Position numbers and translations under genes: made by a program
The notes under the pieces: model-generated
What the model was told of the DNA's origin: nothing
The model's database searches: none
Seen by the model: the letters and a program-made list of their open reading frames with translations, nothing else
Shown here: positions 6,521 to 47,960 of the stretch, in pieces
How the letters are laid out: every line of letters begins with the position of its first letter
Position numbering within the stretch: position 1 is the stretch's first letter
From: Candidatus Staskawiczbacteria bacterium
GTDB lineage: Bacteria > Patescibacteriota > Minisyncoccia > Minisyncoccales > Staskawiczbacteraceae
Length of the DNA: 64,000 bases
Direction: 5' to 3'
Assembly: GCA_903835075.1 (NCBI GenBank)
Contig: CAILLM010000002.1
Location: 16,920-80,919, forward strand

Positions 6521-7375
6521 TTAAAATTCTGTTATTAAATTTATATCTTGTGCATCTTCTATTTTACCTCTGTGTGAGCCCATAGTATCTTCTGATGAGC
6601 GATGTGTATACTCAAAAATTATTTTTTTTCTTTCATCTATAGAGAAGTCTTGATGATTTATAGCGGGCCCTCCAATACACCCGCCGTTACAATTAAGTAA
6701 GTCTAAAAATTTGTATAACTTCGAGCCTGATTTTATTTCTTCAAGTGCTTTTTTGATATTTTCTATGCCATCTGTAACAAGAATTTCTCCTTCTTTAAAA
6801 AATTTTTGGATATGGGATGTGGCAGCTAATCCCCCAGAAATAGGATAAATTTTTGTGTATTCACTTATTAATGAGTCAAAGTAGTAATTTCCATTGAAGT
6901 TTTCTTCTTTAATGCCATTTTTTTCAAAGATTTGTTTTAAATCTTTTAAGTTTATTACAGCATCTATTTCTTCGTGTTTCGGCGCCTCAAGCGTCTCTTT
7001 GGCAAAACATGGTGAAATGAAAATAATTTTGCAATTAGGGTTAAATTTTTTGTAAATTTTTGCCATTGCTACCATTGGGGAAACAATTGGCATAAGATAC
7101 TTTGTAAATTCTGGGTACTGGTTTTTTATAAAAGCAACAACCGTGGGACAGGGAGTAGAAATAAATAATTCCTGCGAGGGGTTATCTTTTATATAATTTT
7201 CATAAGCCCAATTTACCATTTTGGCACCAAAAGTTAGCTCAGTGACTTCTTCAAATCCTAGCGCGCGCAACATTCCGATAATATTGGGATATTTGAAATC
7301 AATAGCAAAAGTTGGCGCCAGCATTGCCACTGCCGTATTGTTTTTTATTAGTTCAATTTTTTGTTGTAACTCCAT
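6521..7375 (-). CDS. [FeFe]-hydrogenase large-subunit C-terminal-domain-like protein (H-domain only)
   Basis: 284 aa. Motifs resemble H-cluster L1/L2/L3: STPCPTVV, ISPCFAKE, LLNCNGGCIGGP. Confidence 0.6.
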   Translation of the reverse strand: MELQQKIELIKNNTAVAMLAPTFAIDFKYPNIIGMLRALGFEEVTELTFGAKMVNWAYENYIKDNPSQELFISTPCPTVVAFIKNQYPEFTKYLMPIVSPMVAMAKIYKKFNPNCKIIFISPCFAKETLEAPKHEEIDAVINLKDLKQIFEKNGIKEENFNGNYYFDSLISEYTKIYPISGGLAATSHIQKFFKEGEILVTDGIENIKKALEEIKSGSKLYKFLDLLNCNGGCIGGPAINHQDFSIDERKKIIFEYTHRSSEDTMGSHRGKIEDAQDINLITEF

Positions 7376-9161: not shown

Positions 9162-9490
9162 TATTTTGTTTCTTTAATTGTATTTTCTACCCACTCTTTT
9201 ATGGAATTTTCAGGTATTAATCCTACAAAATTATTTACTTGTTTCCCATTTTTAAACATAAAAACTGAAGGAATTTTTTCTACATCAAATTTTTGTGAAG
9301 TAGCGGGGAACTCATCTACATTAATTTTCCACAAAACAACATTTTCCTTAAAATGTTCAGCTACTTTTTCTAAGATTGGGCCTAAAACTTGGCATGGCCC
9401 GCACCATGTAGCAAAAAAATCTACTAAGACAAATTTGTCTGTGGCGCCAAGCTCTTCTTCAAAATTTTTATCAGTTATATTTTGTGTCAT
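9161..9490 (-). CDS. trxA: Thioredoxin
   Basis: WCGPC active site, 109 aa. Confidence 0.92.
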   Translation of the reverse strand: MTQNITDKNFEEELGATDKFVLVDFFATWCGPCQVLGPILEKVAEHFKENVVLWKINVDEFPATSQKFDVEKIPSVFMFKNGKQVNNFVGLIPENSIKEWVENTIKETK

Positions 9491-9499
9491 TTTTTTAAT

Positions 9500-10126
9500 T
9501 TAATTTATATCGTTTAATAATATTTGGTGGTCTTTCTTAAACCATTTTAAACAAATGTGATAAATGCCAAACGTTATAAAGTATGCGGCCATTACATCTA
9601 TGGTGTAATGGTAATGCCCAAGCAAGGCTAATATACCTAATATAACAGAAATAGAGACAAATGAATAGCGTAATTTCTTCTCTGGCCAAAAAATTAAAGC
9701 CATTAGAAACGGGAAGCCCACATGCCCTGAAAAAAATAAATCTCCACCCGAGGTAATGCTTTTAAAAATATTTAAGTTTGTGGCAACAATATTTGGGTAA
9801 ATTCCCACGTGAGTCATGGTTATAAAAACAGAACGAATCAAAATAAAAACAGAAGTGCTTTTTAGTATAAAAAGCATTCTTTGAGGCTTAATTAAACATA
9901 GAATTATTATAAAAATAATTACGGCAAAAAAGCCATAAACAAAAATATCGGCTACATTAAAAATTGGGATATTGCTTAAAATTATGTCTGTGACAGCATT
10001 GCTTTGTTTATCGGTGGCATAGTCTGAGGCAAAATATTCAACAACCAAGCTTACAAATAAAAAAACTATTCCCGTAACAAGGGAATAAGCAAAATATTTG
10101 TTTGTTAAATATTTTTTATGAATCAT
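9500..10126 (-). CDS. PAP2_C/sphingomyelin-synthase-like membrane phosphatase-fold protein
   Basis: Polytopic membrane protein with SGH (FFSGHVGFP) and HYHYTIDV motifs. Confidence 0.5.
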   Translation of the reverse strand: MIHKKYLTNKYFAYSLVTGIVFLFVSLVVEYFASDYATDKQSNAVTDIILSNIPIFNVADIFVYGFFAVIIFIIILCLIKPQRMLFILKSTSVFILIRSVFITMTHVGIYPNIVATNLNIFKSITSGGDLFFSGHVGFPFLMALIFWPEKKLRYSFVSISVILGILALLGHYHYTIDVMAAYFITFGIYHICLKWFKKDHQILLNDIN

Positions 10127-10920
10127 TTTATTAGAAAATACCCAATTATTATTATGCCCAATATAATTCTGTAGTATCCAAACACTTTAAAGTTGTGTTT
10201 TTGAACATAATTCATGAAAAATTTTATTACCACTAGGGCTGTAAAAAAAGAAACAATAAGCCCTATTATTAATACGGAAAGCTGGCTTGGATTGAGTAAG
10301 GCGTGATATTTTAACAAGCTGTATCCGGTAGCAGCTATCATTGTTGGAATTGCCAGAAAAAATGAAAATTCTGTTGCTACTAATCGCGAAGTGCCAAGAA
10401 GCAGTGCGCCAATTATTGTAGCTCCAGATCTTGATGTGCCAGGAATCATGGACAGGCATTGAATTAATCCAATAAAAAATGCTGTTTTATAGCTAAGATC
10501 TTTTATAGAAGTAATTTTTGCATTGTGATTTAATTTTTCAACAATTAAAATAATTATTCCGCCAATTAGTAAGGCAATGGCAACCGTCCAGGGATTAAAT
10601 AATTTTTCTTCAATTTTGCTAGCAAACAATGCTCCAACTATTATGGCAGGTAAAACGCCAACCAATGTTTTGAGCCAAAGACTTTTGTCTTGCCAAAGTC
10701 GTTTCTCTCCCTTCGGGAGATGTCCCGTAGGGACACAGAAAAAGAAAACCACTGCCAAAATGGCGCCAAGTTGTATAACTACATCAAAAAGTAAAGTAAA
10801 ATTTTTATCAAAAGTGATAAATTGATTTACCAAAATTAAGTGCCCCGTAGAAGAAATAGGCAAAAATTCAGTGAAACCTTCCACCACACCCAAAATTATT
10901 GCAGTAATATAGCTAAGCAT
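10123..10920 (-). CDS. uppP: Undecaprenyl-diphosphatase
   Basis: BacA/UppP motifs (EFLPISSTGHL, PGTSRSGATI). Contains an in-frame GC-rich element at 10706-10733. Confidence 0.9.
   Translation of the reverse strand: MLSYITAIILGVVEGFTEFLPISSTGHLILVNQFITFDKNFTLLFDVVIQLGAILAVVFFFCVPTGHLPKGEKRLWQDKSLWLKTLVGVLPAIIVGALFASKIEEKLFNPWTVAIALLIGGIIILIVEKLNHNAKITSIKDLSYKTAFFIGLIQCLSMIPGTSRSGATIIGALLLGTSRLVATEFSFFLAIPTMIAATGYSLLKYHALLNPSQLSVLIIGLIVSFFTALVVIKFFMNYVQKHNFKVFGYYRIILGIIIIGYFLIK
10706..10733. repeat. GC-rich double mini-hairpin element, in-frame in uppP
   Basis: tctcccttcgggagatgtcccgtaggga. 26 of 27 nt are identical to 25984-26010. Encodes PTGHLPKGE within an otherwise AT-rich gene. Confidence 0.85.
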
Positions 10921-18002: not shown

Positions 18003-19274
18003 TTATCTAAATCGTCTGCGTTGTCCGCCCCTTTGCGGTGGTCTGTTGCTGTGGCGTGGACCGCGGCTGTTTCTTTGTGGGGCTCTTTCTAATGTCATTT
18101 GAGTACTTGCTGGCAAACCTTCGGGTAATTTTGAAATTGGTAAATTAATGCGGGTTAACATTTCTATGTCACGAACCATTGAACCTTGTTCGGGCGTTGC
18201 AAATGAAATTGCTTTTCCAGACATTCCCGCTCTGCCGGTTCTGCCAATTCTATGCACGTAATCTTCGGCATTTTCAGGCAAATCGTAGTTTATTACTAAT
18301 TCAATATTTTTAACATCAATTCCGCGTGAAGCAATGTCTGTTGCCACTAAAACTCTAAATCTTCCATTTTTAAAACCTTCCAAGGCTTCTTTTCTTTGGT
18401 TTAAACTTCTATTTGAGTGAATTTCTGCGGAAGTTATTCCAATGTAACGCAAATTATCACAAATTTTTCTGGCACTGTGTTTTACGCGTAAAAAAATTAA
18501 AACACTTCCCTTATATTCTTCTAAAAGTTTTTTTAGTAATGCTAATTTTTGGTCTTTTTTAACAACAAATAATTCTTGTTCAATATTTTTAGCAGTTGTT
18601 CCTTGTCGTTCAATTTCCACTCTAACCGGCAACTTCATGTGATGTGTGGCAATTTTTACAATACCGTCGGGCATTGTTGCAGAAAACAACATTGTTTGCC
18701 TATTTTTTGGTACAGATTCTAATATTCTAGCAATTTGGGGAGCAAAACCCATATCAAACATTCTGTCAGCTTCATCTAAAACCAAAACAGAAACCTTGTC
18801 TAGCCGTAAAGTTCTTTGTTGAATGTGGTCATTAATTCTTCCGGGAGTTCCAATAACAACATGGGGGTTGTAAGATAATTCTCTTATTTGTGGTCTAACT
18901 GGTGTGCCACCAATTAAAACAGTTGTTTGTATGCCAAAACTTCGGCCAATTTTTTTAATTGTTTCGTCAACCTGTATTGCAAGTTCACGAGTTGGCAAAA
19001 TAATTAATGCCCTAGTTTTATTTTCAGATTTTAAAATTTGCTGTATTAGCGGAATTCCAAAAGCTAAGGTTTTTCCAGTTCCAGTTTGGGCAATTCCAAT
19101 AATATCTTTTCCTTCAACAGCAACAGGAATTGCTTTATGTTGAATGGATGTTGGAGTTATAAATCCTAATCTTGAAATTATATCAAGAATTTTTGGAGCA
19201 ATGCCAAGCCCGCCAAAATTTGTTTCTGGTGTTTTTGCTGGTGGGGTGAGTGTGTTTATTTCTTCGTTTATCAT
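18003..19274 (-). CDS. DEAD-box ATP-dependent RNA helicase
   Basis: AQTGTGKT, VLDEADRM, SAT, HRIGRTGRAG. Arg-rich C-terminus. Confidence 0.93.
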   Translation of the reverse strand: MINEEINTLTPPAKTPETNFGGLGIAPKILDIISRLGFITPTSIQHKAIPVAVEGKDIIGIAQTGTGKTLAFGIPLIQQILKSENKTRALIILPTRELAIQVDETIKKIGRSFGIQTTVLIGGTPVRPQIRELSYNPHVVIGTPGRINDHIQQRTLRLDKVSVLVLDEADRMFDMGFAPQIARILESVPKNRQTMLFSATMPDGIVKIATHHMKLPVRVEIERQGTTAKNIEQELFVVKKDQKLALLKKLLEEYKGSVLIFLRVKHSARKICDNLRYIGITSAEIHSNRSLNQRKEALEGFKNGRFRVLVATDIASRGIDVKNIELVINYDLPENAEDYVHRIGRTGRAGMSGKAISFATPEQGSMVRDIEMLTRINLPISKLPEGLPASTQMTLERAPQRNSRGPRHSNRPPQRGGQRRRFR

Positions 19275-19444
19275 GTTTTCTATTATATAATAAAATTATC
19301 AAAATGTCAAATTATGCCCTTCGACTTCCTTCGGCGCGGCTCAGGGCAGGTCGCTCAGGGTTGTTTTACTTTTTATTTATTATTTAGAAAGTAAAACAAA
19401 AAAAGACCGCTGGGTGTACCCTGCGGTTTGGGGTCGTTGTGGTT

Positions 19445-22152: not shown

Positions 22153-23562
22153 CTAGCCGGCACAATATTTTACAAATAGTTTTTGGCGTTTGGAAATATC
22201 TGAAGAAGATATTTTCTTTAATTCAGCAGAGGCTTGTTTAGATAATTTTTTAAAATGTTTATCAACTTCTAGTGCTTTTGGGTTAACACAAAAAGCTAAA
22301 TTATTTATTCCTAACAAGTTTAAGCCCTTTAAAGATTTCAATCGTGACAACGCAACATAACCCATACCAGCTAAAAAACATTTAGATAAATCCATTTCTG
22401 CCGAATCTAAGTTCATGCCTTGAGACTTGTGAACAGTAATTGCCCAAGCAAGCCGTAAAGGAATTTGTGAAATTCCAGCCACAATAGTGGTTTTGTCGCC
22501 CCCGATAGTCGCGTCTGGCTCTTCAATTGTCCAATCAGTGTAAGTAACAGTAATTCTTTTGCCTTCTTCGGTTTCTACAACTGGTAAATCAGCTGCAACA
22601 AAGTCCACAACTTTTCCTTGGGTTCCATTTACATAACCTGCTTCAAAATTATTTTTAATAAACATAACATGCGCACCCTCTTTTAAAATTAATTTTTCTG
22701 GGGCCAAGCAACTTTTTTTCAAAATGTCTGAAACAACCGGATTTCCACGAAAAGTCATTTGGTAGCGATACTCTTTACCCTTTATTTTATTTAATTCGGT
22801 GTAATTTATGGTGTCGACATCTATGTTGTGTGTATACAACTTGGTCATTATTTTTTCCCTTCGACTACGCTCATGGCCTAGGTTGTTGCGTTCTAAAAGC
22901 AACAACTCTCGGGATTTTTCAGCTTCATTTTCTCTTATGTGGTTTAAAATTTTGGTAAGTTTTTTATCTTTTGTTCGGTATTGTTCATCTAAATAACAAA
23001 TTTTCATTTCCATTTTTTTCCAAATATCAGACTCCGTAACAAATCCTTGCTTATTTTTATTTGCATCAAAAAGTTCACCCTGGGTTATATTTTCATGCTT
23101 GCCCTGAGCGGAGTCGAAGGGTCTATAAACCGGCGGAAGTTGAAAAAAATCTCCAGAGCAAACAACTTGCATCCCGCCAAAAGGGCGCGGATTACGTTTT
23201 ATAAATTGGCAAATTTTATTTACTGCTTCAAACTGGCTGGCTTTAATCATTGATATCTCATCAATAATTAAAACATTTGTGTTTTTTATTCTTTTTCGTA
23301 AATATCCACGTTCGCATGCTTTTTTAATTTCTGAATCATCAAGCTCATCACGAATTCCAAGCCCGCTCCACGAATGTAAAGTAACTCCGCCCATATGAGT
23401 GGCAGCAATTCCAGTGCTAGCAGTTACAGAAACTACAATATTATTCTTTTTTAAATATTGAATATATTTGTTTAATAAAAAAGTTTTTCCGCTTCCCGGC
23501 GGACCTGTTAAAAAAGTATTGTATCCCGATTTTAATATGTCTAGCGCTTCTTTTTGTTTCAT
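22153..23562 (-). CDS. PIF1/RecD-like ATP-dependent DNA helicase
   Basis: GPPGSGKT, LIIDEISMI, TVHKSQG. Start set at MKQKEAL. Two in-frame GC-rich elements at 22858-22883 and 23101-23121. Confidence 0.85.
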   Translation of the reverse strand: MKQKEALDILKSGYNTFLTGPPGSGKTFLLNKYIQYLKKNNIVVSVTASTGIAATHMGGVTLHSWSGLGIRDELDDSEIKKACERGYLRKRIKNTNVLIIDEISMIKASQFEAVNKICQFIKRNPRPFGGMQVVCSGDFFQLPPVYRPFDSAQGKHENITQGELFDANKNKQGFVTESDIWKKMEMKICYLDEQYRTKDKKLTKILNHIRENEAEKSRELLLLERNNLGHERSRREKIMTKLYTHNIDVDTINYTELNKIKGKEYRYQMTFRGNPVVSDILKKSCLAPEKLILKEGAHVMFIKNNFEAGYVNGTQGKVVDFVAADLPVVETEEGKRITVTYTDWTIEEPDATIGGDKTTIVAGISQIPLRLAWAITVHKSQGMNLDSAEMDLSKCFLAGMGYVALSRLKSLKGLNLLGINNLAFCVNPKALEVDKHFKKLSKQASAELKKISSSDISKRQKLFVKYCAG

Positions 23563-23564
23563 TT

Positions 23565-24800
23565 TTATGCGTTGTTGCCGGCGATGTAGCCGGTGGTCCA
23601 ACAAATTTGCAAACTGTAGCCGCCAGAGGGGCGGTCAATGTCTAAAATGTCACCAGTTAAATATAAATTTGGAATTATGCGAGACTGCATTGTTTTAAAA
23701 TTTACTTCTGCCAAATCCACTCCACTGGATGAAGCCATTGCACGGTTGGCAATTAATCCAGAAACATTAAGTGGAAGTGCTTTTATTGTGGAAATTATTT
23801 TTTTACGGTTTTGTGCAGTTAAATTGTTATTTTTTATTTCTGCGTTTATTTCTAAAATTTCTAAAATTGCTAAAGCAACTGAAGATGGAATTAACTCACT
23901 TAAATTATTTTTAATTTGTTTGTTGGCGTTTTCTTGAAAAAGATTTTGAAGTTTTGTTTGTAAATCTGAAGCCTTAATTTTTGGCAGTAAATCTATTTTG
24001 ATTGTCACTTTTCCTGATTTTAGTAAGTCACCAACTTGTTTGCTGATATTAAATATGGTTGGTCCTGAAACGCCAAAATGGGTAAATAAAATTTCGCCGT
24101 CAATAGAAAACTTCTTTTTATTGTCTTGAAAAACCGTTATATTTATATCGTTAAGCGTCACGCCCGTCAATTTTTTTGGCCAATTATCGCTTAAAGCAAC
24201 GGGAGCTAAAGCAACATTATTCTTTGTAATTTTGTGTCCCATTTTTTCTAACCAGTCAAAAACTTCGCCAGTTGAGCCGGTTTCGGGGTAGGAATTTCCG
24301 CCAGTTGCCAAAATGCAAGATTTTGCTGATACGGTTTCACTCCCGCCTATTTCAATAATTATATTTTTAGTTTTTTCGTCAATGGAAATTTTTGTAACTT
24401 CAGAATTCGTTTTTATTTCTACGTTATTTTTTTGTAAATATTTTGTTAATGTTTCTAAAACATTTTTGGCGCTGTTGGAAGTGGGGAATACTCGGCCGTT
24501 ATTTTCTTCTTTTGTTTTTATGCCAATTTTTTCAAAAAATTCTAAAGTTTTTTTTACATCAAATTGTGCAAAAGCTGAAAAAAGAAACTTGCCACTGTTT
24601 CTATATTTTTTTAAAATATTTTCTGGCGTTATATTTTTGTTGGTTAAATTGCACCTTCCGCCACCTGTAAGCAATAATTTTTTGCCAAGAGTGGCATTTT
24701 TTTCTAATAATAAAACCGAGCGACCCCTTTGCGCCGCCCTACCAGCTGACAAGATGCCCGCCGGTCCCGCGCCAATTACTATTATGTCGTATGTTTCCAT
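23565..24800 (-). CDS. HI0933/BaiN-like FAD-dependent oxidoreductase
   Basis: IVIGAGPAGILSAG dinucleotide-binding motif and GGGRCNLTN signature. Confidence 0.85.
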   Translation of the reverse strand: METYDIIVIGAGPAGILSAGRAAQRGRSVLLLEKNATLGKKLLLTGGGRCNLTNKNITPENILKKYRNSGKFLFSAFAQFDVKKTLEFFEKIGIKTKEENNGRVFPTSNSAKNVLETLTKYLQKNNVEIKTNSEVTKISIDEKTKNIIIEIGGSETVSAKSCILATGGNSYPETGSTGEVFDWLEKMGHKITKNNVALAPVALSDNWPKKLTGVTLNDINITVFQDNKKKFSIDGEILFTHFGVSGPTIFNISKQVGDLLKSGKVTIKIDLLPKIKASDLQTKLQNLFQENANKQIKNNLSELIPSSVALAILEILEINAEIKNNNLTAQNRKKIISTIKALPLNVSGLIANRAMASSSGVDLAEVNFKTMQSRIIPNLYLTGDILDIDRPSGGYSLQICWTTGYIAGNNA

Positions 24801-36045: not shown

Positions 36046-37020
36046 ATGGAATCACCACAGAACATAAAGAAAAGACTGAGGTCAGTCAATAATATAAACA
36101 AAATTACTAAGGCCATGGAAATGGTTGCGGCTACTAAAATGCGTAAATCGCAGGAAATAGCCCTAGCCAGCAGGCCTTATGCTTTTGCGGCACTTGATTT
36201 TTTGGCAACAGTTTCCAACTTAGATTCGGCAAAATTGCCAGAATTGTTTCACGATAGGACAAAAAATCCTTCGACAAGCTCAGGACCGCGGGTTTTATTT
36301 GTTTTGGTGTCTTCTGACAAGGGCTTGGCGGGAGCATTTAACAGTTCGGTTTTTAGAAAATTCGCCGCCCATTTTGAAAAATGGGCGAGCCTCGCCCCAA
36401 AGGGGCGGGAGGAGCAATTGTTTGTCGCGATTGGTGAAAAAGCAAATCAGTATTTATCAAAAAAGGGTTACAACGTTGTAAAAAAATTTACAGCAGTTGG
36501 CGACCATACCACAGTAGAGCAAGTTAAGCCAATCGCTGATTTTATTGTTGAAGGTTTTTTGGCGGAAAGCTGGGACAGGGTAGTTGTTGTTTCAACACAT
36601 TTTAGAAGTGCATTAAAACAAGAACCGCACGTACGCACAATCTTGCCTATTGATTTTGATCATATTGCAGAAACAATAAAAGAAATTATTCCCGAGCGCG
36701 GAAAATTTGCTGATTTGATAAAAGAACAAAACATAAGTTTTATACCAAGCAAAACCGATTCAAGGGATTATTTAATAGAACCGTCGGCAGAAGAAGTTTT
36801 AAATAATTTGGCAAAGCATTTATTTTTTATGCAAATGTACCATATAATTTTAGAAGCAAACGCATCCGAACATTCCGCCCGCAGAATGGCCATGAAAACA
36901 GCTTCTGACAACGCAAAAGATTTAGGAGACAGATTAAATTTACAATATAATAAATCAAGACAGTCGAGAATAACTACAGAAATTAGTGAAATCTCGGCGG
37001 GTGCTGAGGCATTAAGTTAA
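36046..37020 (+). CDS. atpG: F0F1 ATP synthase subunit gamma
   Basis: ITKAMEMVAATKMRK N-terminus and ITTEISEISAGAEAL C-terminus. In-frame GC-rich elements at 36267-36291 and 36384-36410. Confidence 0.93.
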   Translation: MESPQNIKKRLRSVNNINKITKAMEMVAATKMRKSQEIALASRPYAFAALDFLATVSNLDSAKLPELFHDRTKNPSTSSGPRVLFVLVSSDKGLAGAFNSSVFRKFAAHFEKWASLAPKGREEQLFVAIGEKANQYLSKKGYNVVKKFTAVGDHTTVEQVKPIADFIVEGFLAESWDRVVVVSTHFRSALKQEPHVRTILPIDFDHIAETIKEIIPERGKFADLIKEQNISFIPSKTDSRDYLIEPSAEEVLNNLAKHLFFMQMYHIILEANASEHSARRMAMKTASDNAKDLGDRLNLQYNKSRQSRITTEISEISAGAEALS

Positions 37021-38660: not shown

Positions 38661-38696
38661 AAAGCCGTGCTGAGCTCGTCGAAGTACGGCTTTTTG
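38661..38696 (+). terminator. atp operon terminator built from a CTGAGC...CGAAG repeat unit
   Basis: gccgt-gctgagctcgtcgaag-tacggc hairpin followed by T5. Confidence 0.65.
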
Positions 38697-38824
38697 CTTG
38701 TCCTGAGCCTGCCGAATGGGTTGCAAAAAAAATAAAATGTGGTAAATTATATTTATCCGCTCAAGCGAATTGAATCGGACAGCATTTTTACAACAGAATA
38801 ATGGAAAAACCGGAGGAGAAATAA

Positions 38825-41058: not shown

Positions 41059-41092
41059 AAAATCAGGTTAACCATGGTTAACCTGAAATATT

Positions 41093-42796
41093 ATGGAACA
41101 AGAAATTAAATTATGCCAAAATTGTAAAAAGGACTTTACTATAGAGCCTCAAGATTTTGATTTCTATGAAAAAATGAAAGTGCCAGCTCCAACGTTTTGT
41201 CCGGAATGTAGGTTTCAACGTCGCATAATGTTTCGCAATGAAAGGACGCTTTATAAGCGAAAGTGTGATTTGTGTGGCAAGGATGTGGTGACAATTTTTT
41301 CTTTAGATTCAAAATTGATTGTGTATTGCCAATCGTGTTGGTGGTCGGACAAATGGGACGATGGTGAATATTTTTTAGATTATAACCCAGAAAAACCGTT
41401 TTTTGAGCAAATGATTGAATTGCAGAAAAAAACTCCGCATATGGCTTTAGTGAGTGAATATGCAACATTGATTAACAGTGATTATGTAAATCACGCAGGA
41501 GGGCTTAAAAATTGTTATTTAATCTTTAACGCTGATTTTTGTGAAAATGTTTTATACTCAACAGTAGTTGTTCGAGTTAAAGATTCTTTGGATTGCCATA
41601 TGGTTGGCGAATCAGAGCTTATGTATGAAGACATTGATAGCACGGGTTATAAGCTATTTTTCTCCGAAAGTTGCACAAAATGTAGTGAATCTTATTTTTT
41701 AAAAAGTTGCATTGGTTGTGATAATTGTTTTGGTTGCATTAATTTAAGAAATAAAAAATACTGCATTTTTAATCAGCAATTTACGCGAGAAGAATATTTT
41801 GAAAAAATTAAGGAATACAAACTTAACAGTCATAGTGAATTGTTGAAGATTAGAAAAATAGTCGATGATTTTTGGTTGAAATATCCTAATAAATTTATGC
41901 ACAAAGACGCCCAGTGCGTCAATGTTTCTGGGGAATATGTTTTTCGTGCAAAAAATGCTTTAAACTGTTATCAGGCGCGCGAGCTGGAAGATGCTCGTTA
42001 TTGTCAGTTTATAACAATGCCACCGGCTAAAGATATTTATGATCTTACCGAGTGGGGGATGGGTGTTCAGCGGGTAGTAGATGTCACGGGCGTTGGCGAT
42101 GGGGCTGACATGGTCAAATTTAGCATGAATGCCTGGCATCAAGGAACTATGGAGGTGGAATATGGGATGTATAATATATCATGTCAAAATGTTTTTGGTT
42201 GCATTAACCAGAAGAAAAAACAATATAGTATTTTAAATAAGAAGTATTCGTCGGAGGAATATTTTGCTTTGCGTGCGCAAATCATAGAAGACATGGAAAA
42301 AAATCCTTATGTTGATTCTGTGGGAAGAATTTGGCATTATGGAGATTTCTTGCCATATGACTTAAGCCCATTCACATATAACGAATCTCAAGCAATACAA
42401 TATTACCCGCTTTCTAAAGAAGAAATTTTAAAAAAGGGATGGACATGGCGTGAGCCAGTTACGAGCAGTCACGTTATAACAATACCGGCCAATAAAATCC
42501 CCGACAATATTAATGAAACACAAGATTCAATATTAAGAGAAATTTTAGGATGCGATTTGTGCGGTAAAGCTTTTAAAATAACTTCGGCTGAGTTCGCGCT
42601 TTTAAAGCGTTTTGGATTTTCTGTTCCACATTTTTGCTCGGATTGTCGGCATATGGAGCGCATTAAACGAATTAACCCGCCTAAATTATGGAATCGTAAT
42701 TGTGCTAAATGCAACACAGCATTTCAAACATCTTACGCGCCCGATAGGCCGGAAATTGTGTATTGCGAAGGCTGTTACAATAACGAAGTAAATTAA
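41093..42796 (+). CDS. Cys-rich multi-zinc-ribbon protein, paralog A
   Basis: N-terminal CQNCKKDFTIEPQDFDFYEKMKVPAPTFCPECRFQRR (zf-trcl-like). Central repeats of the GCINLRNKKYCIFN type. C-terminal double ribbon ending RPEIVYCEGCYNNEVN. Confidence 0.75.
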   Translation: MEQEIKLCQNCKKDFTIEPQDFDFYEKMKVPAPTFCPECRFQRRIMFRNERTLYKRKCDLCGKDVVTIFSLDSKLIVYCQSCWWSDKWDDGEYFLDYNPEKPFFEQMIELQKKTPHMALVSEYATLINSDYVNHAGGLKNCYLIFNADFCENVLYSTVVVRVKDSLDCHMVGESELMYEDIDSTGYKLFFSESCTKCSESYFLKSCIGCDNCFGCINLRNKKYCIFNQQFTREEYFEKIKEYKLNSHSELLKIRKIVDDFWLKYPNKFMHKDAQCVNVSGEYVFRAKNALNCYQARELEDARYCQFITMPPAKDIYDLTEWGMGVQRVVDVTGVGDGADMVKFSMNAWHQGTMEVEYGMYNISCQNVFGCINQKKKQYSILNKKYSSEEYFALRAQIIEDMEKNPYVDSVGRIWHYGDFLPYDLSPFTYNESQAIQYYPLSKEEILKKGWTWREPVTSSHVITIPANKIPDNINETQDSILREILGCDLCGKAFKITSAEFALLKRFGFSVPHFCSDCRHMERIKRINPPKLWNRNCAKCNTAFQTSYAPDRPEIVYCEGCYNNEVN

Positions 42797-42848
42797 TATA
42801 GAAACAGCCGAAGTCCTGAGCCGTGCCGAAGGACGAAACTTGCTACCA
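42746..42848. repeat. 103-nt near-identical block (3' end of paralog A plus downstream)
   Basis: Matches 44560-44662 with only 3 mismatches, whereas the gene bodies are strongly diverged. Confidence 0.85.
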
Positions 42849-42942
42849 GCAAGAAGTTGCATAAAATTAAAGATAACTTTTTTGCCACGTGGCAAAAAAG
42901 TTAGGTTAATGAGTATTAACTTAAGTAACTTGCAGTAAAAGC

Positions 42943-44610
42943 ATGGAACAAGATGCGCGTAATTGTCAGAATTGCAAAAGCGAGTTTGTAATTGAGCCCG
43001 ATGATTTTGCGTTTTACGAAAAAATGAAGGTACCAGCACCAACATTTTGCCCAGAGTGCAGGAGACGAAGAAGATTGTCTTGGCGAAATGATTTTGTTTT
43101 TTATAATCGTAATTGTGATTTGTGCAAAAGAAACATAATTTCAATTTATTCTCCGGATAGCCCTCAAGTAATTTATTGCAATAAATGTTGGTGGGGTGAT
43201 GGCTGGGATCCAAAAAAATATGCACAAGATTTTGATTTTAGCCGTACTTTTTTTGAGCAATTTAAAGAATTTCGCCTAAAAGTGCCAACTCTTGCTTTAA
43301 CTAATGACAATAATATAGGAAGTGAAAATTGTGAATATACGCAAAATTTTGCTTTGGGTAAAAATTGCTATATGACAATGGTTTCTTGGAAGGTTGAAAA
43401 TTGTATGTACACTTGTTATGCCGCTGAAACAAAAGACACAGTGGATTCAATGGGAATTTTTAGCACTGGCGAAGGTCTTTACGAGGTAATGTATAGTGAA
43501 AAATGTTTTGGATGTAGAAATATCTATGGTTCTTCAAGTCTTATGAATTGCGCCTATTGTACAGAATGCGTGGGCTGTGAAAATTGCTTTATGTGTATAA
43601 ACTTGCGGAATAAGCAATATTATATTTTAAATAAACCCTATTCCAAAGAGGAGTACGAAAAGATTATAAATTCTTATAAATTAGAAACGCTTAGCGGAAG
43701 CGAAAAAGCCAGAGTTGAATTTGAGGCTTTTTTACGCACTCAGCCAAGGAGATTTGTTTCTTCAAGGAATTGCGTTAATTGCACGGGAAACAACATAATT
43801 AATAGCAAAAATGCAAAAAATGTTTTTCATTGTCGCAGATCGGAAGATTCTAAATATTTAGAGAATGGCGATACCCAAAAAGATAGTTATGACTTGTGCG
43901 TTGGTGGGGAACTTTCAGAATGTTATGAGGGTATAACTCCAGATAACTCAAACAAAGCATTGTTTTCTATTTATACATGGAAATGCATGGATGTAGCTTA
44001 TTCGGAATTTTTGCAATCTTCAAAAAATTGTTTTGGCAGTGTTGCTTTAAAACATGGTGAATATTCAATTTTTAATAAACAATACACCAAAGAAGAATAT
44101 TTTAAGTTAAAAGATGAAATTATAGAGCATATGAAAAAAAGTGGAGAATGGGGGGAGTTTTTTCCAATAAATTACTCACCATTTTCCTATAATGAATCCA
44201 TGGCAATGGTAGATTTTCCTTTAACAAAAGAAGAAGCTTTGATAAAAGGTCTTAATTGGCAAGATAATATTCAGGAAACCAAGGGCAAAACAACTTTAAA
44301 AAATATTCCAGATAGCATAAATAATGTTGAGGATTCAATTTTAAATGAAATTTTAGAATGTTCTGTTTGTGAAAGAAATTATAAAATAGTTACTGATGAG
44401 CTGGCTTTTTATAGAAAATGGAAAATTCCAGTACCTACAAAATGCTTTTTTTGTAGAATTAAAAAAAGACTAGAAATTCGCGGGCCATCTAGGCTTTGGC
44501 ATAGGAATTGCATGAATAAAGGTTGCACAAATGAATTTGAAACCAGCTATGCGCCCAACAGGCCGGAAATTGTGTATTGCGAAGGCTGTTACAATAACGA
44601 AGTAAATTAA
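42943..44610 (+). CDS. Cys-rich multi-zinc-ribbon protein, paralog B
   Basis: Same architecture as 41093-42796. N-terminal CQNCKSEFVIEPDDFAFYEKMKVPAPTFCPECRRRRR. Confidence 0.75.
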   Translation: MEQDARNCQNCKSEFVIEPDDFAFYEKMKVPAPTFCPECRRRRRLSWRNDFVFYNRNCDLCKRNIISIYSPDSPQVIYCNKCWWGDGWDPKKYAQDFDFSRTFFEQFKEFRLKVPTLALTNDNNIGSENCEYTQNFALGKNCYMTMVSWKVENCMYTCYAAETKDTVDSMGIFSTGEGLYEVMYSEKCFGCRNIYGSSSLMNCAYCTECVGCENCFMCINLRNKQYYILNKPYSKEEYEKIINSYKLETLSGSEKARVEFEAFLRTQPRRFVSSRNCVNCTGNNIINSKNAKNVFHCRRSEDSKYLENGDTQKDSYDLCVGGELSECYEGITPDNSNKALFSIYTWKCMDVAYSEFLQSSKNCFGSVALKHGEYSIFNKQYTKEEYFKLKDEIIEHMKKSGEWGEFFPINYSPFSYNESMAMVDFPLTKEEALIKGLNWQDNIQETKGKTTLKNIPDSINNVEDSILNEILECSVCERNYKIVTDELAFYRKWKIPVPTKCFFCRIKKRLEIRGPSRLWHRNCMNKGCTNEFETSYAPNRPEIVYCEGCYNNEVN

Positions 44611-44662
44611 TATAAAAACAGCCGAAGTCCTGAGCCGTGCCGAAGGGCGAAACTTGTTACCA
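44560..44662. repeat. 103-nt near-identical block (3' end of paralog B plus downstream)
   Basis: See 42746-42848. Confidence 0.85.
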
Positions 44663-44818
44663 AAATGAAGTCTCCTAGTATATTAGGTAGTAAAAAAAAC
44701 ACAATAACCGACTAAATTGGTCGGTTATGCGATGAAAAGACGAATTTAATCCCATGAAAAGTTCACATTACGATTTGGACTTTTTTCTTTATGAAAAATA
44801 TGATAAACTTGAAATAAC

Positions 44819-45908
44819 ATGGCAGAAATAACTCCACAAATTGAAGAGCTTGAATCACGCCTCCAGAATTTGGGAGACCGTCTTTGACATAACCGGAAAA
44901 GAAAAGAAATTAAAAGAATTAGAAGACGAGTCTGTAACGCCAGATTTTTGGAATAATAACGAACATGCAACAGAAGTTCAGCAAGAAATTTCAGAAATAA
45001 AAAATGAGATTTCAGCTTTAGAAGAAATAAAGAAAGATATAACCGCCTTCGCCGAAGGCTTCGGCGAGTCAAGGGAAGATTTAAATAAAAAGATAGAAAA
45101 ATTGGAATTTAAAACCTATTTATCTGGCAAATATGACAAAAATAATGCAATTTTAGAAATATTTTCTGGCGCAGGTGGGCAAGATTCGCAAGATTGGTCA
45201 ACAATGCTTTTACGAATGTATGAGAGATATTGCAACAGCAAGGGTTGGAAAACTGAAATTTTACATCAAGCATTTGGAGAGGGTGGTGGACCAGAAGGAA
45301 GAATTGGCACAAAATCTGTCACAATAGAAATAAAGGGAAGTCATGCATATGGATTTTTGAAAAAAGAAGCAGGGGTGCACAGGCTAGTAAGGCTTTCACC
45401 GTTTAATTCGCAAAAACTTAGACACACTTCCTTTGCTTTAGTAAATGTTTTGCCCGAGATAAAGGATAGCGAATTATCCGCCCTAGGCGGACCAGCCTCG
45501 GGCTGGGAAATTAGGCCAGATGATTTAAAAATTGATACCTTTAAGGCTTCTGGACCAGGCGGACAGTATGTTAACAAAACAGAATCAGCAGTAAGAATTA
45601 CGCACATACCAACGGGAATTGTTGTGGCTTCACAAACCGAAAGATTGCAGGGAAAGAACAAAGATAAGGCAATGAAAATATTGGTTGCAAAACTATACCA
45701 GTTGCGCGAAGAACAACACGTAAAAGAAATTAAAGAAATAAAAGGGGAAAACATTTCTGTGCGTTTTGGAAATCAAATAAGGTCTTATGTTTTACACCCA
45801 TATAAAATGGTAAAAGACTTACGCACACTTTACGAAGCATCTGATGCAGAAGGAGTTTTAGATGGGGATTTAGAAAAATTTATTGAAGCTGAAATAAAAC
45901 ATGATTAA
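44819..45908 (+). CDS. prfB: Peptide chain release factor 2, with programmed +1 frameshift
   Basis: Frame 0: MAEITPQIEELESRLQNLGDRL then CTT TGA C at 44882-44888, preceded by GGGAG. The +1 frame continues as DITGKEKK... SPF-equivalent region and GGQ motif (SGPGGQYVNKTESAVR). Confidence 0.92.
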
Positions 45909-47628: not shown

Positions 47629-47868
47629 ATGTATTTTGTTTATATTCTCAAAAGTATAAAAGATTCTAAATATTATATTGGTCAAACCGAAAATTTAAGC
47701 GATAGGTTGAATAAGCATAACGTAGGACAAGTTAAATCAACACGTAATAGAAGGCCTTTTGTTTTGATAAAATCAGAAATTTTTGATACAAGGAGTGAAG
47801 CTAGAAAAAGAGAAAATTATTTGAAAAAACTAAAGGGTGGTAATGAATTTAAAAAAATAATAAACTGA
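47629..47868 (+). CDS. GIY-YIG nuclease-domain protein (short)
   Basis: YFVYILKS...YYIGQTENLSDRLNKHN. Paralog of 31513-31767. Confidence 0.8.
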   Translation: MYFVYILKSIKDSKYYIGQTENLSDRLNKHNVGQVKSTRNRRPFVLIKSEIFDTRSEARKRENYLKKLKGGNEFKKIIN

Positions 47869-47886: not shown

Positions 47887-47960
47887 TGCGGGATCGTCTA
47901 ATGGTAGGACACGTCCCTCTGAAGGATGTTATCTAGGTTCGAGTCCTAGTCCCGCAGCCA
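47887..47960 (+). tRNA. tRNA-Gln (CTG)
   Basis: Hand-folded. Acceptor tgcggga/tcccgca (U1-A72), anticodon loop ctCTGaa, T-loop ttcgagt, encoded CCA. Confidence 0.85.

Follow-up and report, generated by a model that had tools for sequence, protein, structure and literature searches.

How can two tandem genes whose products are 41% identical come to share a nearly identical 3' end that continues past their stop codons? The question is raised by a pair of paralogs in a Candidatus Staskawiczbacteria bacterium (Patescibacteriota), gene A (41093..42796, + strand, 567 amino acids) and gene B (42943..44610, + strand, 555 amino acids), which lie in a stretch of 64,000 nucleotides (nt) of contig CAILLM010000002.1 that is referred to here as the window. 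Coordinates given alone are those of the window, and other loci carry L numbers. An initial annotation of this DNA had described the two genes as tandem, strongly diverged paralogs with treble-clef-type zinc ribbons at both ends and with near-identical 3' blocks, and both descriptions are borne out below. In each gene the block is a composite of gene end, spacer and hairpin, and is followed by a second, untranslated copy of the gene end. This arrangement is recent, recurs at the same codon in other organisms, has a mirror form at the 5' ends of related genes and is absent from close orthologs of gene A. From these patterns we infer a recombination mechanism and its direction, which are weighed against other explanations after the evidence has been set out.

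Anatomy of the shared 3' tract

Gene B is an old paralog of A in a separate subfamily, with best relatives that are 72% identical to it, and the two proteins align end to end (41% identity, E=1e-143, BLASTP). Both contain the N-terminal motif CxxC...F(D/A)FYEKMKVPAPTFCPECRxxRR and the C-terminal RPEIVYCEGCYNNEVN. The shared tract is 103 nt long in each gene (copy A, 42746..42848; copy B, 44560..44662; both on the + strand). Its two copies differ at three positions (G/A, A/G and C/T), the number that had been counted by eye, and a fainter similarity reaches to about 42857 in A and 44671 in B. According to a codon alignment, all 16 identical residues within the last 17 codons are specified by the identical codon (16/16), compared with 112 of 211 (53%) outside them. 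For the N-terminal motif, whose amino-acid identity is 94%, third-position identity is only about 41-47%. In the non-coding part of the tract, 52 of 55 bases are identical, and identity runs 52 nt past the stop. Because codon identity is so much higher here than elsewhere, and because non-coding bases are identical as well, constraint on the protein is insufficient to account for the tract. The downstream element has a 38-nt core, of which the window contains just two copies and shuffled sequence would be expected to contain none. The tract is thus a recent likeness at the DNA level, as the initial annotation had proposed when it invoked recent gene conversion; a simple conversion of homologous sequence does not describe it, since the block is composite and stands before a second gene end.

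The same annotation had named an assembly collapse or duplication artefact as the outcome that would undo its reading. Contigs assembled independently from several samples, by different pipelines, keep the A-B order and the same two copy-specific differences (both copies in L003, L004, L005 and L142, copy A in L006 and L007), and the tract is therefore not an assembly artefact; we consider the chance of one negligible. The gene A protein (P0001) is identical on 16 contigs, and the exact gene B protein, whose cluster representative is a 325-residue fragment, is likewise present on 16 by exact look-up, although a word-indexed homolog search with B did not return it. The repeat is just 103 nt long, which should be shorter than an Illumina read, and its flanks are unique.

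Each copy of the tract is composed of the last 17 codons of the gene (...RPEIVYCEG CYNNEVN), the stop codon, a 17-nt A-rich spacer and a 22-nt G+C-rich hairpin. The translated end of A (42764..42796, + strand) is TGC GAA GGC TGT TAC AAT AAC GAA GTA AAT TAA, or CEGCYNNEVN*, and that of B (44578..44610, + strand) has the same sequence. In the spacer that follows the stop of A (42797..42812, + strand), AACAGCC (42803-42809) is complementary to GGCTGTT (42770-42776) in the coding end; the resulting stem, P1, joins the post-stop spacer to the x-Cys codons of the translated end and encloses the stop codon. The spacer of B occupies 44611..44626 (+ strand), and its P1 arms 44584-44590 and 44617-44623. 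The hairpin of copy A, GTCCTGAGCCGTGCCGAAGGAC (42813..42834, + strand), has a 5-bp stem, a tandem G.A/A.G and a loop, with a 20-mer core at 42813-42832. In copy B (GTCCT...AGGGC, 44627..44648, + strand), an A-to-G difference changes a U-A pair to U.G.

The second copy of the last 8-10 codons lies directly 3' of the tract in each gene and is untranslated. This pseudo-end reads GAA ACT TGC TAC CAG CAA GAA GTT GCA TAA = ETCYQQEVA* in A (42835..42864, + strand) and GAA ACT TGT TAC CAA AAT GAA GTC TCC TAG = ETCYQNEVS* in B (44649..44678, + strand). In A, about 68 nt (42767-42834) separate the ...YC codons of the family from the second E-x-C-Y-x-x-E-V-x-stop. Terminator-like palindromes sit downstream of the pseudo-ends and not of the translated stops: a perfect 15+15 palindrome at 42874..42903, 10 nt past the stop of pseudo-end A, and a terminator-like hairpin at 44704..44728, 25 nt past that of pseudo-end B. 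The orthologs of gene A are simpler. A Staskawiczbacteria genome (L001) has a single-copy ortholog with 79% identity and with DivIC and prfB-ftsE-ftsX as neighbors, as in the window; it ends CEQCYQQEVA*, without hairpin and without a second end. No cassette, as the whole arrangement is called from here on, was found in any of the close A orthologs examined (77-81% identity: L001, L002, L062-L066), each of which has a single gene end. Since the second gene end is retained in A and B and the orthologs are single-ended, the tract adds sequence rather than just replacing it. Another set of related palindromes, AGGTTAACC..GGTTAACCT, was observed 5' of gene A (41063-41086), in degenerate form between A and B (42905-42930) and 3' of the L001 ortholog (6743-6762); these may be terminators or operator-like sites.

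Recurrence at both ends of family genes

The block had been presented as a feature of this one pair, which is too narrow. Eighty metagenome loci with relatives of gene A were fetched and every family gene on them was mapped, 83 loci entering the counts. Under a strict definition of the cassette, a second CYxxEVx-stop no more than 200 nt past the real stop, it is present in 7 of 177 family genes (window A, window B, L072, L076, L082, L098 and L111), with about 0.05 expected by chance as calculated from base frequencies. A decayed cassette, with a pseudo-end that has neither stop nor frame, was seen in L075/L077. At least six further family genes of other organisms have the same architecture at the same codon, and all cases have a common layout: a stop, an A-rich spacer, one or more G+C-rich hairpins ending in GG(G/A)C, and then GAR-NNN-TGY-TAY. 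L098 and L111 encode proteins with 44-50% identity to A and contain the same non-coding core as the window, GCCGAAG-TCCYGAG-loop-CGARGGGCGAA, with differing loops, and L072, L076 and L082 have other G+C-rich structures in the same place. In 1.08 Mb of fetched DNA, the cassette-specific flanks GCCGAAG-TCCYGAG...CGARGGRCGAA are confined to the 3' ends of family genes. Translated end and pseudo-end differ mostly by synonymous changes (5 of 5 differences in L076; in L111, four synonymous differences plus one conservative Ile/Val and a change in the variable x-codon), and both end copies therefore descend from functional gene ends. Furthermore, window B and L098, from different organisms, have pseudo-ends with the same first 20 nt, so that a pseudo-end can travel with its hairpin.

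Tandem arrangement is the rule in this family, as 63 of the 83 loci have 2-6 same-strand paralogs within 10 kb. Self-comparison of each locus identified terminal tracts of 35-153 nt at 90-97% identity between tandem paralogs. Such homogenised tracts are found at 3' ends in L002, L088, L091, L092, L117/L121 and L125, and at 5' ends or gene junctions in L071, L079, L083, L100, L108, L124, L127, L131 and L136. At L002, fragments of a decayed fifth family paralog (9223-9720 and 9996-10550) lie 3' of a four-gene array and a split VirD4-like ATPase, an indication of gene death within arrays.

A mirror form of the cassette exists at the 5' ends of about 13 distinct genes. In these, a displaced start (ATG...TGY CAR AAY = M..ETK.CQN) is followed by a G+C-rich palindrome and then by a new start with its own CQNC (two cases each in L068, L073 and L100; others in L075/L077, L078, L082, L111, L115, L120 and L127). 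The palindromes belong to other families, CCCGAC...GTCGGG or TGTCCCGAT...ATCGGGACA. The 5' junction is C-Q-N^C and the 3' junction C^E-x-C; thus, both fall within the outermost CxxC knuckle of the protein. Mini-hairpins are also inserted in frame in the leader that precedes the first cysteine of intact family genes (L062, L065, L066, where it is nested, and L124). Separately, a hairpin-like sequence, TCCTTCGA(C/G)G(A/T)GCTCAGGACA (+ strand), was noted in the conserved ...YTKE-EY..LR.-KII... segment of family genes in L071 (7440-7530) and L132 (1745-1830); it reads SFDELRT or SFEVLRT and leaves the length of the segment unchanged, and could be either an element or native sequence.

The CTGAGC/CGAAG repeat unit that the initial annotation had recognized in the block is present, though it is in fact a hairpin whose 20-mer core is dispersed in many phyla. 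This 20-mer, GTCCTGAGCCGTGCCGAAGG (42813-42832 and 44627-44646), has exact matches in 54 stretches of GTDB representative genomes (L008-L061), with an estimated ~1-3 matches expected by chance in 596 Gb. Its hosts include Chloroflexota, Binatia, Gallionellaceae, Planctomycetota, Peribacteria, Saccharibacteria and Parcubacteria, and its flanks are unrelated save for a preferred 5' (G)C(C/T)T. Copies are nested in L013 and L014 and in tandem in L018. As read by eye, others are in frame within an era-like Gallionellaceae gene (L019, L022, L031, L038 and L055) and a recO-like gene (L047), and some matches, at three alphaproteobacterial purD-like loci, look like native coding sequence. The window itself contains 7-8 related CTGAG-N-CGAAG hairpins, where 0.9 would be expected. 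In addition to the two cassette copies, these include a nested mini-hairpin upstream of open reading frame (ORF) 18003-19274 (19329-19358, - strand), one inside ORF 22153-23604 (23104-23119, + strand), one in the ATP synthase gamma gene, read in frame as PSTSSGP (36269-36283, - strand), and two just past the atpC stop (38670-38684 and 38700-38719, + strand), the first of them within a terminator-like stem. Viral contigs yielded neither the protein family nor the 20-mer. Literature searches on the element as DNA or peptide strings, and on palindromic insertions generally, returned no description of it.

Origin of the cassettes

We put at about an even chance the explanation that each cassette is a composite hairpin insertion, flanked by family 3'-end sequence, that has been spread among paralogs by homologous recombination. 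Because family 3'-end sequence stands on both sides of the hairpin, any family member offers homology to both sides, and the flanks could serve as arms for homologous recombination. A non-reciprocal exchange (gene conversion) would recently have copied the block between the paralogs, or a third copy would have supplied both. On the left, the exchange point would be in the conserved RPEIVYCE codons upstream of 42746, with identity declining gradually there. On the right, it would be at the very start of the pseudo-end: A and B share GAAACTTG, even though the codon ACT is variable, and diverge beyond it. The window pair may then be one case of a family-wide exchange of gene termini among tandem paralogs, in which the outer junction at either gene end, inside the outermost CxxC knuckle, is occupied by G+C-rich palindromic mini-elements. 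Such recombination accounts for identity that passes the hairpin on both sides, for mosaic cassettes, for homogenised array termini and for cassette-free orthologs. The hairpin itself is possibly a neutral or selfish passenger, or it may have a modest effect on the mRNA 3' end.

Several points weigh against spread by recombination. The right homology arm is imperfect and only about 8-30 nt long, short for a RecA-type exchange. The constant junction in eight genes fits a site-specific process at least equally well. Compensatory differences in P1 (given below) would not be predicted by purely passive recombination and hint at selection or a templated mechanism. Recombination leaves three things unexplained: the origin of the first cassette, the co-variation of P1 and the constancy of the junction. 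No recombination intermediate, pseudo-end-free donor or same-species empty-site allele was found, all contigs of the species having both cassettes. Comparison with the ends of orthologs is indecisive, because a 76%-identical relative (L080) natively ends CEGCYNNEVA, and which of the two ends in the window is native is therefore undecidable. Finally, the 83 census loci were picked as relatives of gene A and form a biased sample.

The constant junction could reflect a site-specific mobile mini-element, a tiny non-autonomous hairpin that is moved in trans (by an HUH/RAYT-type or other nuclease) and was inserted independently into A and B. We regard this as unlikely, and hold the same view of its corollary that the outermost CxxC knuckle would be the target and the duplicated gene end a by-product of insertion or rescue. 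The junction falls at the same codon (TGC^GAR) in eight genes from at least six organisms, with a mirror site (CAR AAY^TGY) at 5' ends; the 20-mer occurs in many phyla between unrelated flanks, at times nested, in tandem or in frame in conserved genes; related hairpins are in excess in the window; and leaders of intact family genes have in-frame insertions. On the other hand, identity between A and B reaches 51 nt into coding sequence and 8 nt into the pseudo-end, well past the hairpin, and at other sites the bare hairpins lack both the cassette flanks and any duplication of flanks. Nor was a transposase identified, the ORFs of the window not having been screened for PF01797. Moreover, the differences between end copies are synonymous and not random, so a fresh target-site duplication followed by decay, which was also considered in its own right, is unlikely. 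A broader conjecture along these lines is offered tentatively: ultra-small (~20-90 nt) G+C-rich palindromes of Patescibacteria may home into the outermost CxxC knuckles on both sides of genes in this family of thousands, where the duplicated terminus makes them harmless, and the GTCCTGAGCCGTGCCGAAGG core may represent an undescribed cross-phylum class of mini-elements that is tolerated in frame even in essential genes.

The initial annotation had suggested a functional shared 3' element, and a selected cis-acting RNA would be one form of it: a structure of P1 and the hairpin (P2, with its tandem G.A) in the 3' untranslated region (UTR) that serves mRNA stability, processing or translation termination. 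To this we assign a rather small probability. One argument for it is P1, whose arms differ in a compensatory manner between independent cassettes (GGCTGTT/AACAGCC in the window, AGCTGTT/AACAGCT in L082 and GGCCTGTT/AACAGGCC in L111); in L098 the stem is GGCTT/AAGCC. In 170 cassette-free family genes used as controls, the longest such stem averages 4.0 bp and reaches 7 bp or more in 1 of 170. The single A/G difference in the hairpin preserves pairing, and the non-coding core GCCGAAGTCCYGAG...CGARGGRCGAA is kept between organisms whose proteins are only 44-50% identical. However, the folding energy of the 66-nt element is no better than that of shuffles (z = -1.55 for A and +0.23 for B). Rfam returned four tRNAs alone for the whole window at gathering thresholds, noise for the A-B intergenic region at E up to 10, and nothing at the cassettes of six other loci at E up to 1. 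There is no U-run after the hairpin, which is thus not an intrinsic terminator. The element is carried by only ~5% of sampled family genes, with close orthologs lacking it, and an RNA role leaves the second gene end unexplained. The compensatory differences thus speak for a functional element, while the energies and the Rfam searches do not. The second gene end also makes a plain conversion between the homologous 3' ends and UTRs of the two genes, with nothing inserted, an improbable account: homogenised terminal tracts are frequent in family arrays and the left boundary is fuzzy, within conserved codons, but both genes keep a gene-specific second copy of the last codons right after the tract, contradicting it, and the single-ended orthologs show that sequence was added. 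The pseudo-ends might instead be the real ends, if the segment from the first CY codons to the hairpin were removed from the mRNA or skipped by the ribosome. They keep coding-like sequence with synonymous-type differences, and, as read from the sequence, removal of 68 nt would join the frames exactly. Yet neither an intron or ribozyme signature nor an Rfam match is present, a hammerhead-like string lacks the CUGANGA core, the upstream end already gives a complete consensus C-terminus, the pseudo-end of L075/L077 has lost both stop and frame, and no stop codon follows the candidate take-off codon; we judge excision or bypass very improbable.

Further candidates were tried and rejected. As an intrinsic terminator, the hairpin at 42813-42834 fails in that it is followed by GAAACUUGCUACC, and the only sites returned by a scan are 42874-42903 and 44704-44728. 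For a hammerhead ribozyme, ...GUCCUGAGCCGUGCCGAAGGACGAAAC offers CCGAAG-GUCCU...AGGAC-GAAAC without the catalytic core motif named above. Ribozymes of the hepatitis delta virus (HDV)-like, pistol and twister types were considered by eye and found no support. An integron attC site would have R'/R'' boxes, which are absent. The variable repeat of a diversity-generating retroelement does not fit, as the mismatches have no adenine-specific pattern and each copy is a gene end. A programmed bypass like that of T4 gene 60 was dismissed for want of a stop after the take-off codon. For a simple tandem duplication by unequal exchange at CGAAGG repeats, the ACGAAACT that follows the hairpin mismatches the expected product.

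Parallels for single aspects of the cassettes exist. Gene conversion between tandem paralogs similarly produces short near-identical tracts in the most conserved sequence of saturated paralogs, here in many arrays. Ordinary conversion only replaces, however, whereas the window tract brings an additional stop, spacer and hairpin, and a second gene end remains behind it. Polymorphic toxin loci (CdiA-CT, Rhs) acquire a new 3' end by recombination at a conserved motif, with the old end surviving downstream as an untranslated orphan. The displaced, untranslated end in the window can be seen as analogous to these orphan C-terminal modules, but it amounts to 8-10 codons instead of a domain and an immunity gene, exchange affects the most conserved region of the protein, so that no new function is gained, and in the Patescibacteria family there is a hairpin at the junction and a 5' mirror form. 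Phage 21 and e14 in icd, and islands in tRNA genes, insert in a gene end and come to lie between a functional and a displaced copy of it. By analogy, the insertion in the window would also lie between a functional and a displaced end; it differs in being about 40-90 nt long, without an integrase and with a multigene family as target. Very small palindromic repeats are known as repetitive extragenic palindromic sequences (REP/REPIN; PMC3116915) and as MITEs, miniature transposable elements with inverted repeats (reviewed in PMC10969869). Like REP/REPIN, the window element is palindromic and repeated (7-8 copies per 64 kb), yet several of its copies are in coding regions and not extragenic.

Rickettsia palindromic elements, cyanobacterial small dispersed repeats and mitochondrial GC clusters are further tiny palindromic repeats. 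The hairpins resemble these as a group in being G+C-rich, 20-30 nt long and dispersed, with some nested, in tandem or in frame in coding genes. They are unlike them in that the 20-mer spans many phyla instead of one species or genus, and in that hairpins of the Patescibacteria family are tied to duplicated gene termini. Known analogies (conversion, orphan C-terminal modules and target-duplicating integrative elements) exist, and it is their combination of which no description was found in the literature searched.

The protein family and its significance

The proteins that carry these cassettes belong to a large family. Scored homologs number more than 5,400 for A and more than 6,800 for B, nearly all named hypothetical, and every homolog with a source-named organism belongs to a Patescibacteria (Parcubacteria-type) lineage. 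An exhaustive search among 50%-identity clusters found 3,836 at E<=1e-3 and 1,419 at E<=1e-30, nearly all of them 540-600 residues long. The initial annotation had credited each protein with more than 40 cysteines; the two proteins contain 31 and 35. Of these, 16 are invariant and make up four CxxC...CxxC ribbons. In A, residues 1-88 and residues 482-567 constitute an N-terminal and a C-terminal double zinc-ribbon module, which are mutually homologous (32% identity, E=2e-15). The Cys-rich centre between them contains two internal modules per protein, as had been described, with the motif GC(I/V)NLRNK..Y.I.N..(T/S).EEY visible in both DNA and protein (41717-41801 and 42182-42266 in A; 43576-43660 and 44020-44104 in B; + strand; DNA repeat scan and BLASTP); compared half against half, gene A gives E=5e-10 (BLASTP).

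Like zf_Tbcl, zf_Tbcl_2, TIGR04272 and LIM domains, the modules consist of paired CxxC knuckles, but A and B score below the curated cut-offs. In Pfam, A reaches 21.7 bits on zf_Tbcl_2 (PF23477, gathering cut-off 27) and B 19 bits on zf_Tbcl (PF13451, cut-off 24), and many close homologs have a precomputed PF23477 match. The NCBIfam model TIGR04272 (CxxC-x17-CxxC) gives 10.5 bits against a cut-off of 36; the last ribbon of A, C537-x2-C540-x17-C558-x2-C561, fits its pattern and not its score. The C-terminal module is weakly LIM double-finger-like, its best PDB profile match (E=0.0029, or about 0.003, 19.7 bits, 54 residues) being a resemblance that falls short of LIM membership. Small archaeal (Methanosarcina) proteins with the CxxC-x17-CxxC domain bind zinc (PMC12704099), and that study was the only one found when the literature was searched for the domain names. 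For the ~380-residue centre no model was found in Pfam, NCBIfam or PADLOC. AlphaFold2 predicted the whole protein with a predicted local distance difference test score (pLDDT) of 80.9 and a predicted template modeling score (pTM) of 0.86, and the centre alone with a pLDDT of 82.7 and many short strands. Foldseek returned nothing significant, and the top non-significant matches of the centre were all left-handed beta-helix proteins; in the absence of a significant superposition, the centre is not assigned to the left-handed beta-helix (hexapeptide-repeat) class. The beta-helix suggested earlier is thus weakly consistent with the models and finds no significant fold match. Taken together, sequence comparison and structure models predict a double treble-clef zinc-ribbon, a Cys-rich beta-solenoid-like centre of two related halves, and a second, homologous double zinc-ribbon.

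The initial annotation knew of no function for the family, and no database gives one; the anti-phage defence models of PADLOC have no match for A or B. The neighborhood offers a lead, in that 26 of 83 loci have a co-directional VirD4/TraG/HerA-like ATPase beside the arrays or among their genes (e.g., L114, 193-2529). This ATPase has a C-terminal zf_Tbcl_2 ribbon that scores 46 bits, above the Pfam threshold, and in PADLOC it obtains generic mad8/HerA matches only. From this neighborhood and the shared domain, our working guess is that the protein is a zinc-dependent adaptor or substrate linked to the VirD4/HerA-like ATPase; more tentatively, the family may be a diversifying set of substrates or adaptors for this ATPase with the same zinc ribbon. 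Other recurrent neighbors are CutA1 (10 loci), a cytidylyltransferase-like protein (6 loci) and an NYN-domain protein (4 loci). The window contains no third family copy and no VirD4-like ATPase. Downstream of gene B lies prfB (release factor 2, 44819-45908), with the classical programmed +1 frameshift site CTT TGA C at 44882-44888, an ATG at 44819 in frame 0 and a long ORF from 44841 in the +1 frame. A 79-residue GIY-YIG protein (47629-47868) adjoins a tRNA gene (47887-47957), and the same pair is found in L001.

For annotation, the cassettes mean that short orphan starts and ends beside family genes are not to be called genes or frameshifts. A hairpin that works through RNA would represent a new 3' UTR motif. 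Should the elements prove mobile, they would rank among the smallest known, with an unusual kind of insertion that protects the host gene by target duplication. The presence of an identical 20-nt sequence in Chloroflexota, Gallionellaceae and Parcubacteria raises the question of how lineages so far apart came to share it. For the family itself, the terminal cassettes point to arrays that are reshaped by frequent, very local recombination at both conserved gene ends, with hairpins at the junctions. Despite their tiny genomes, Patescibacteria keep tandem arrays in which a ~560-residue protein is encoded in up to six or more copies. With thousands of clusters at 50% identity and no known function, the family is therefore among the larger blind spots of Patescibacteria biology.

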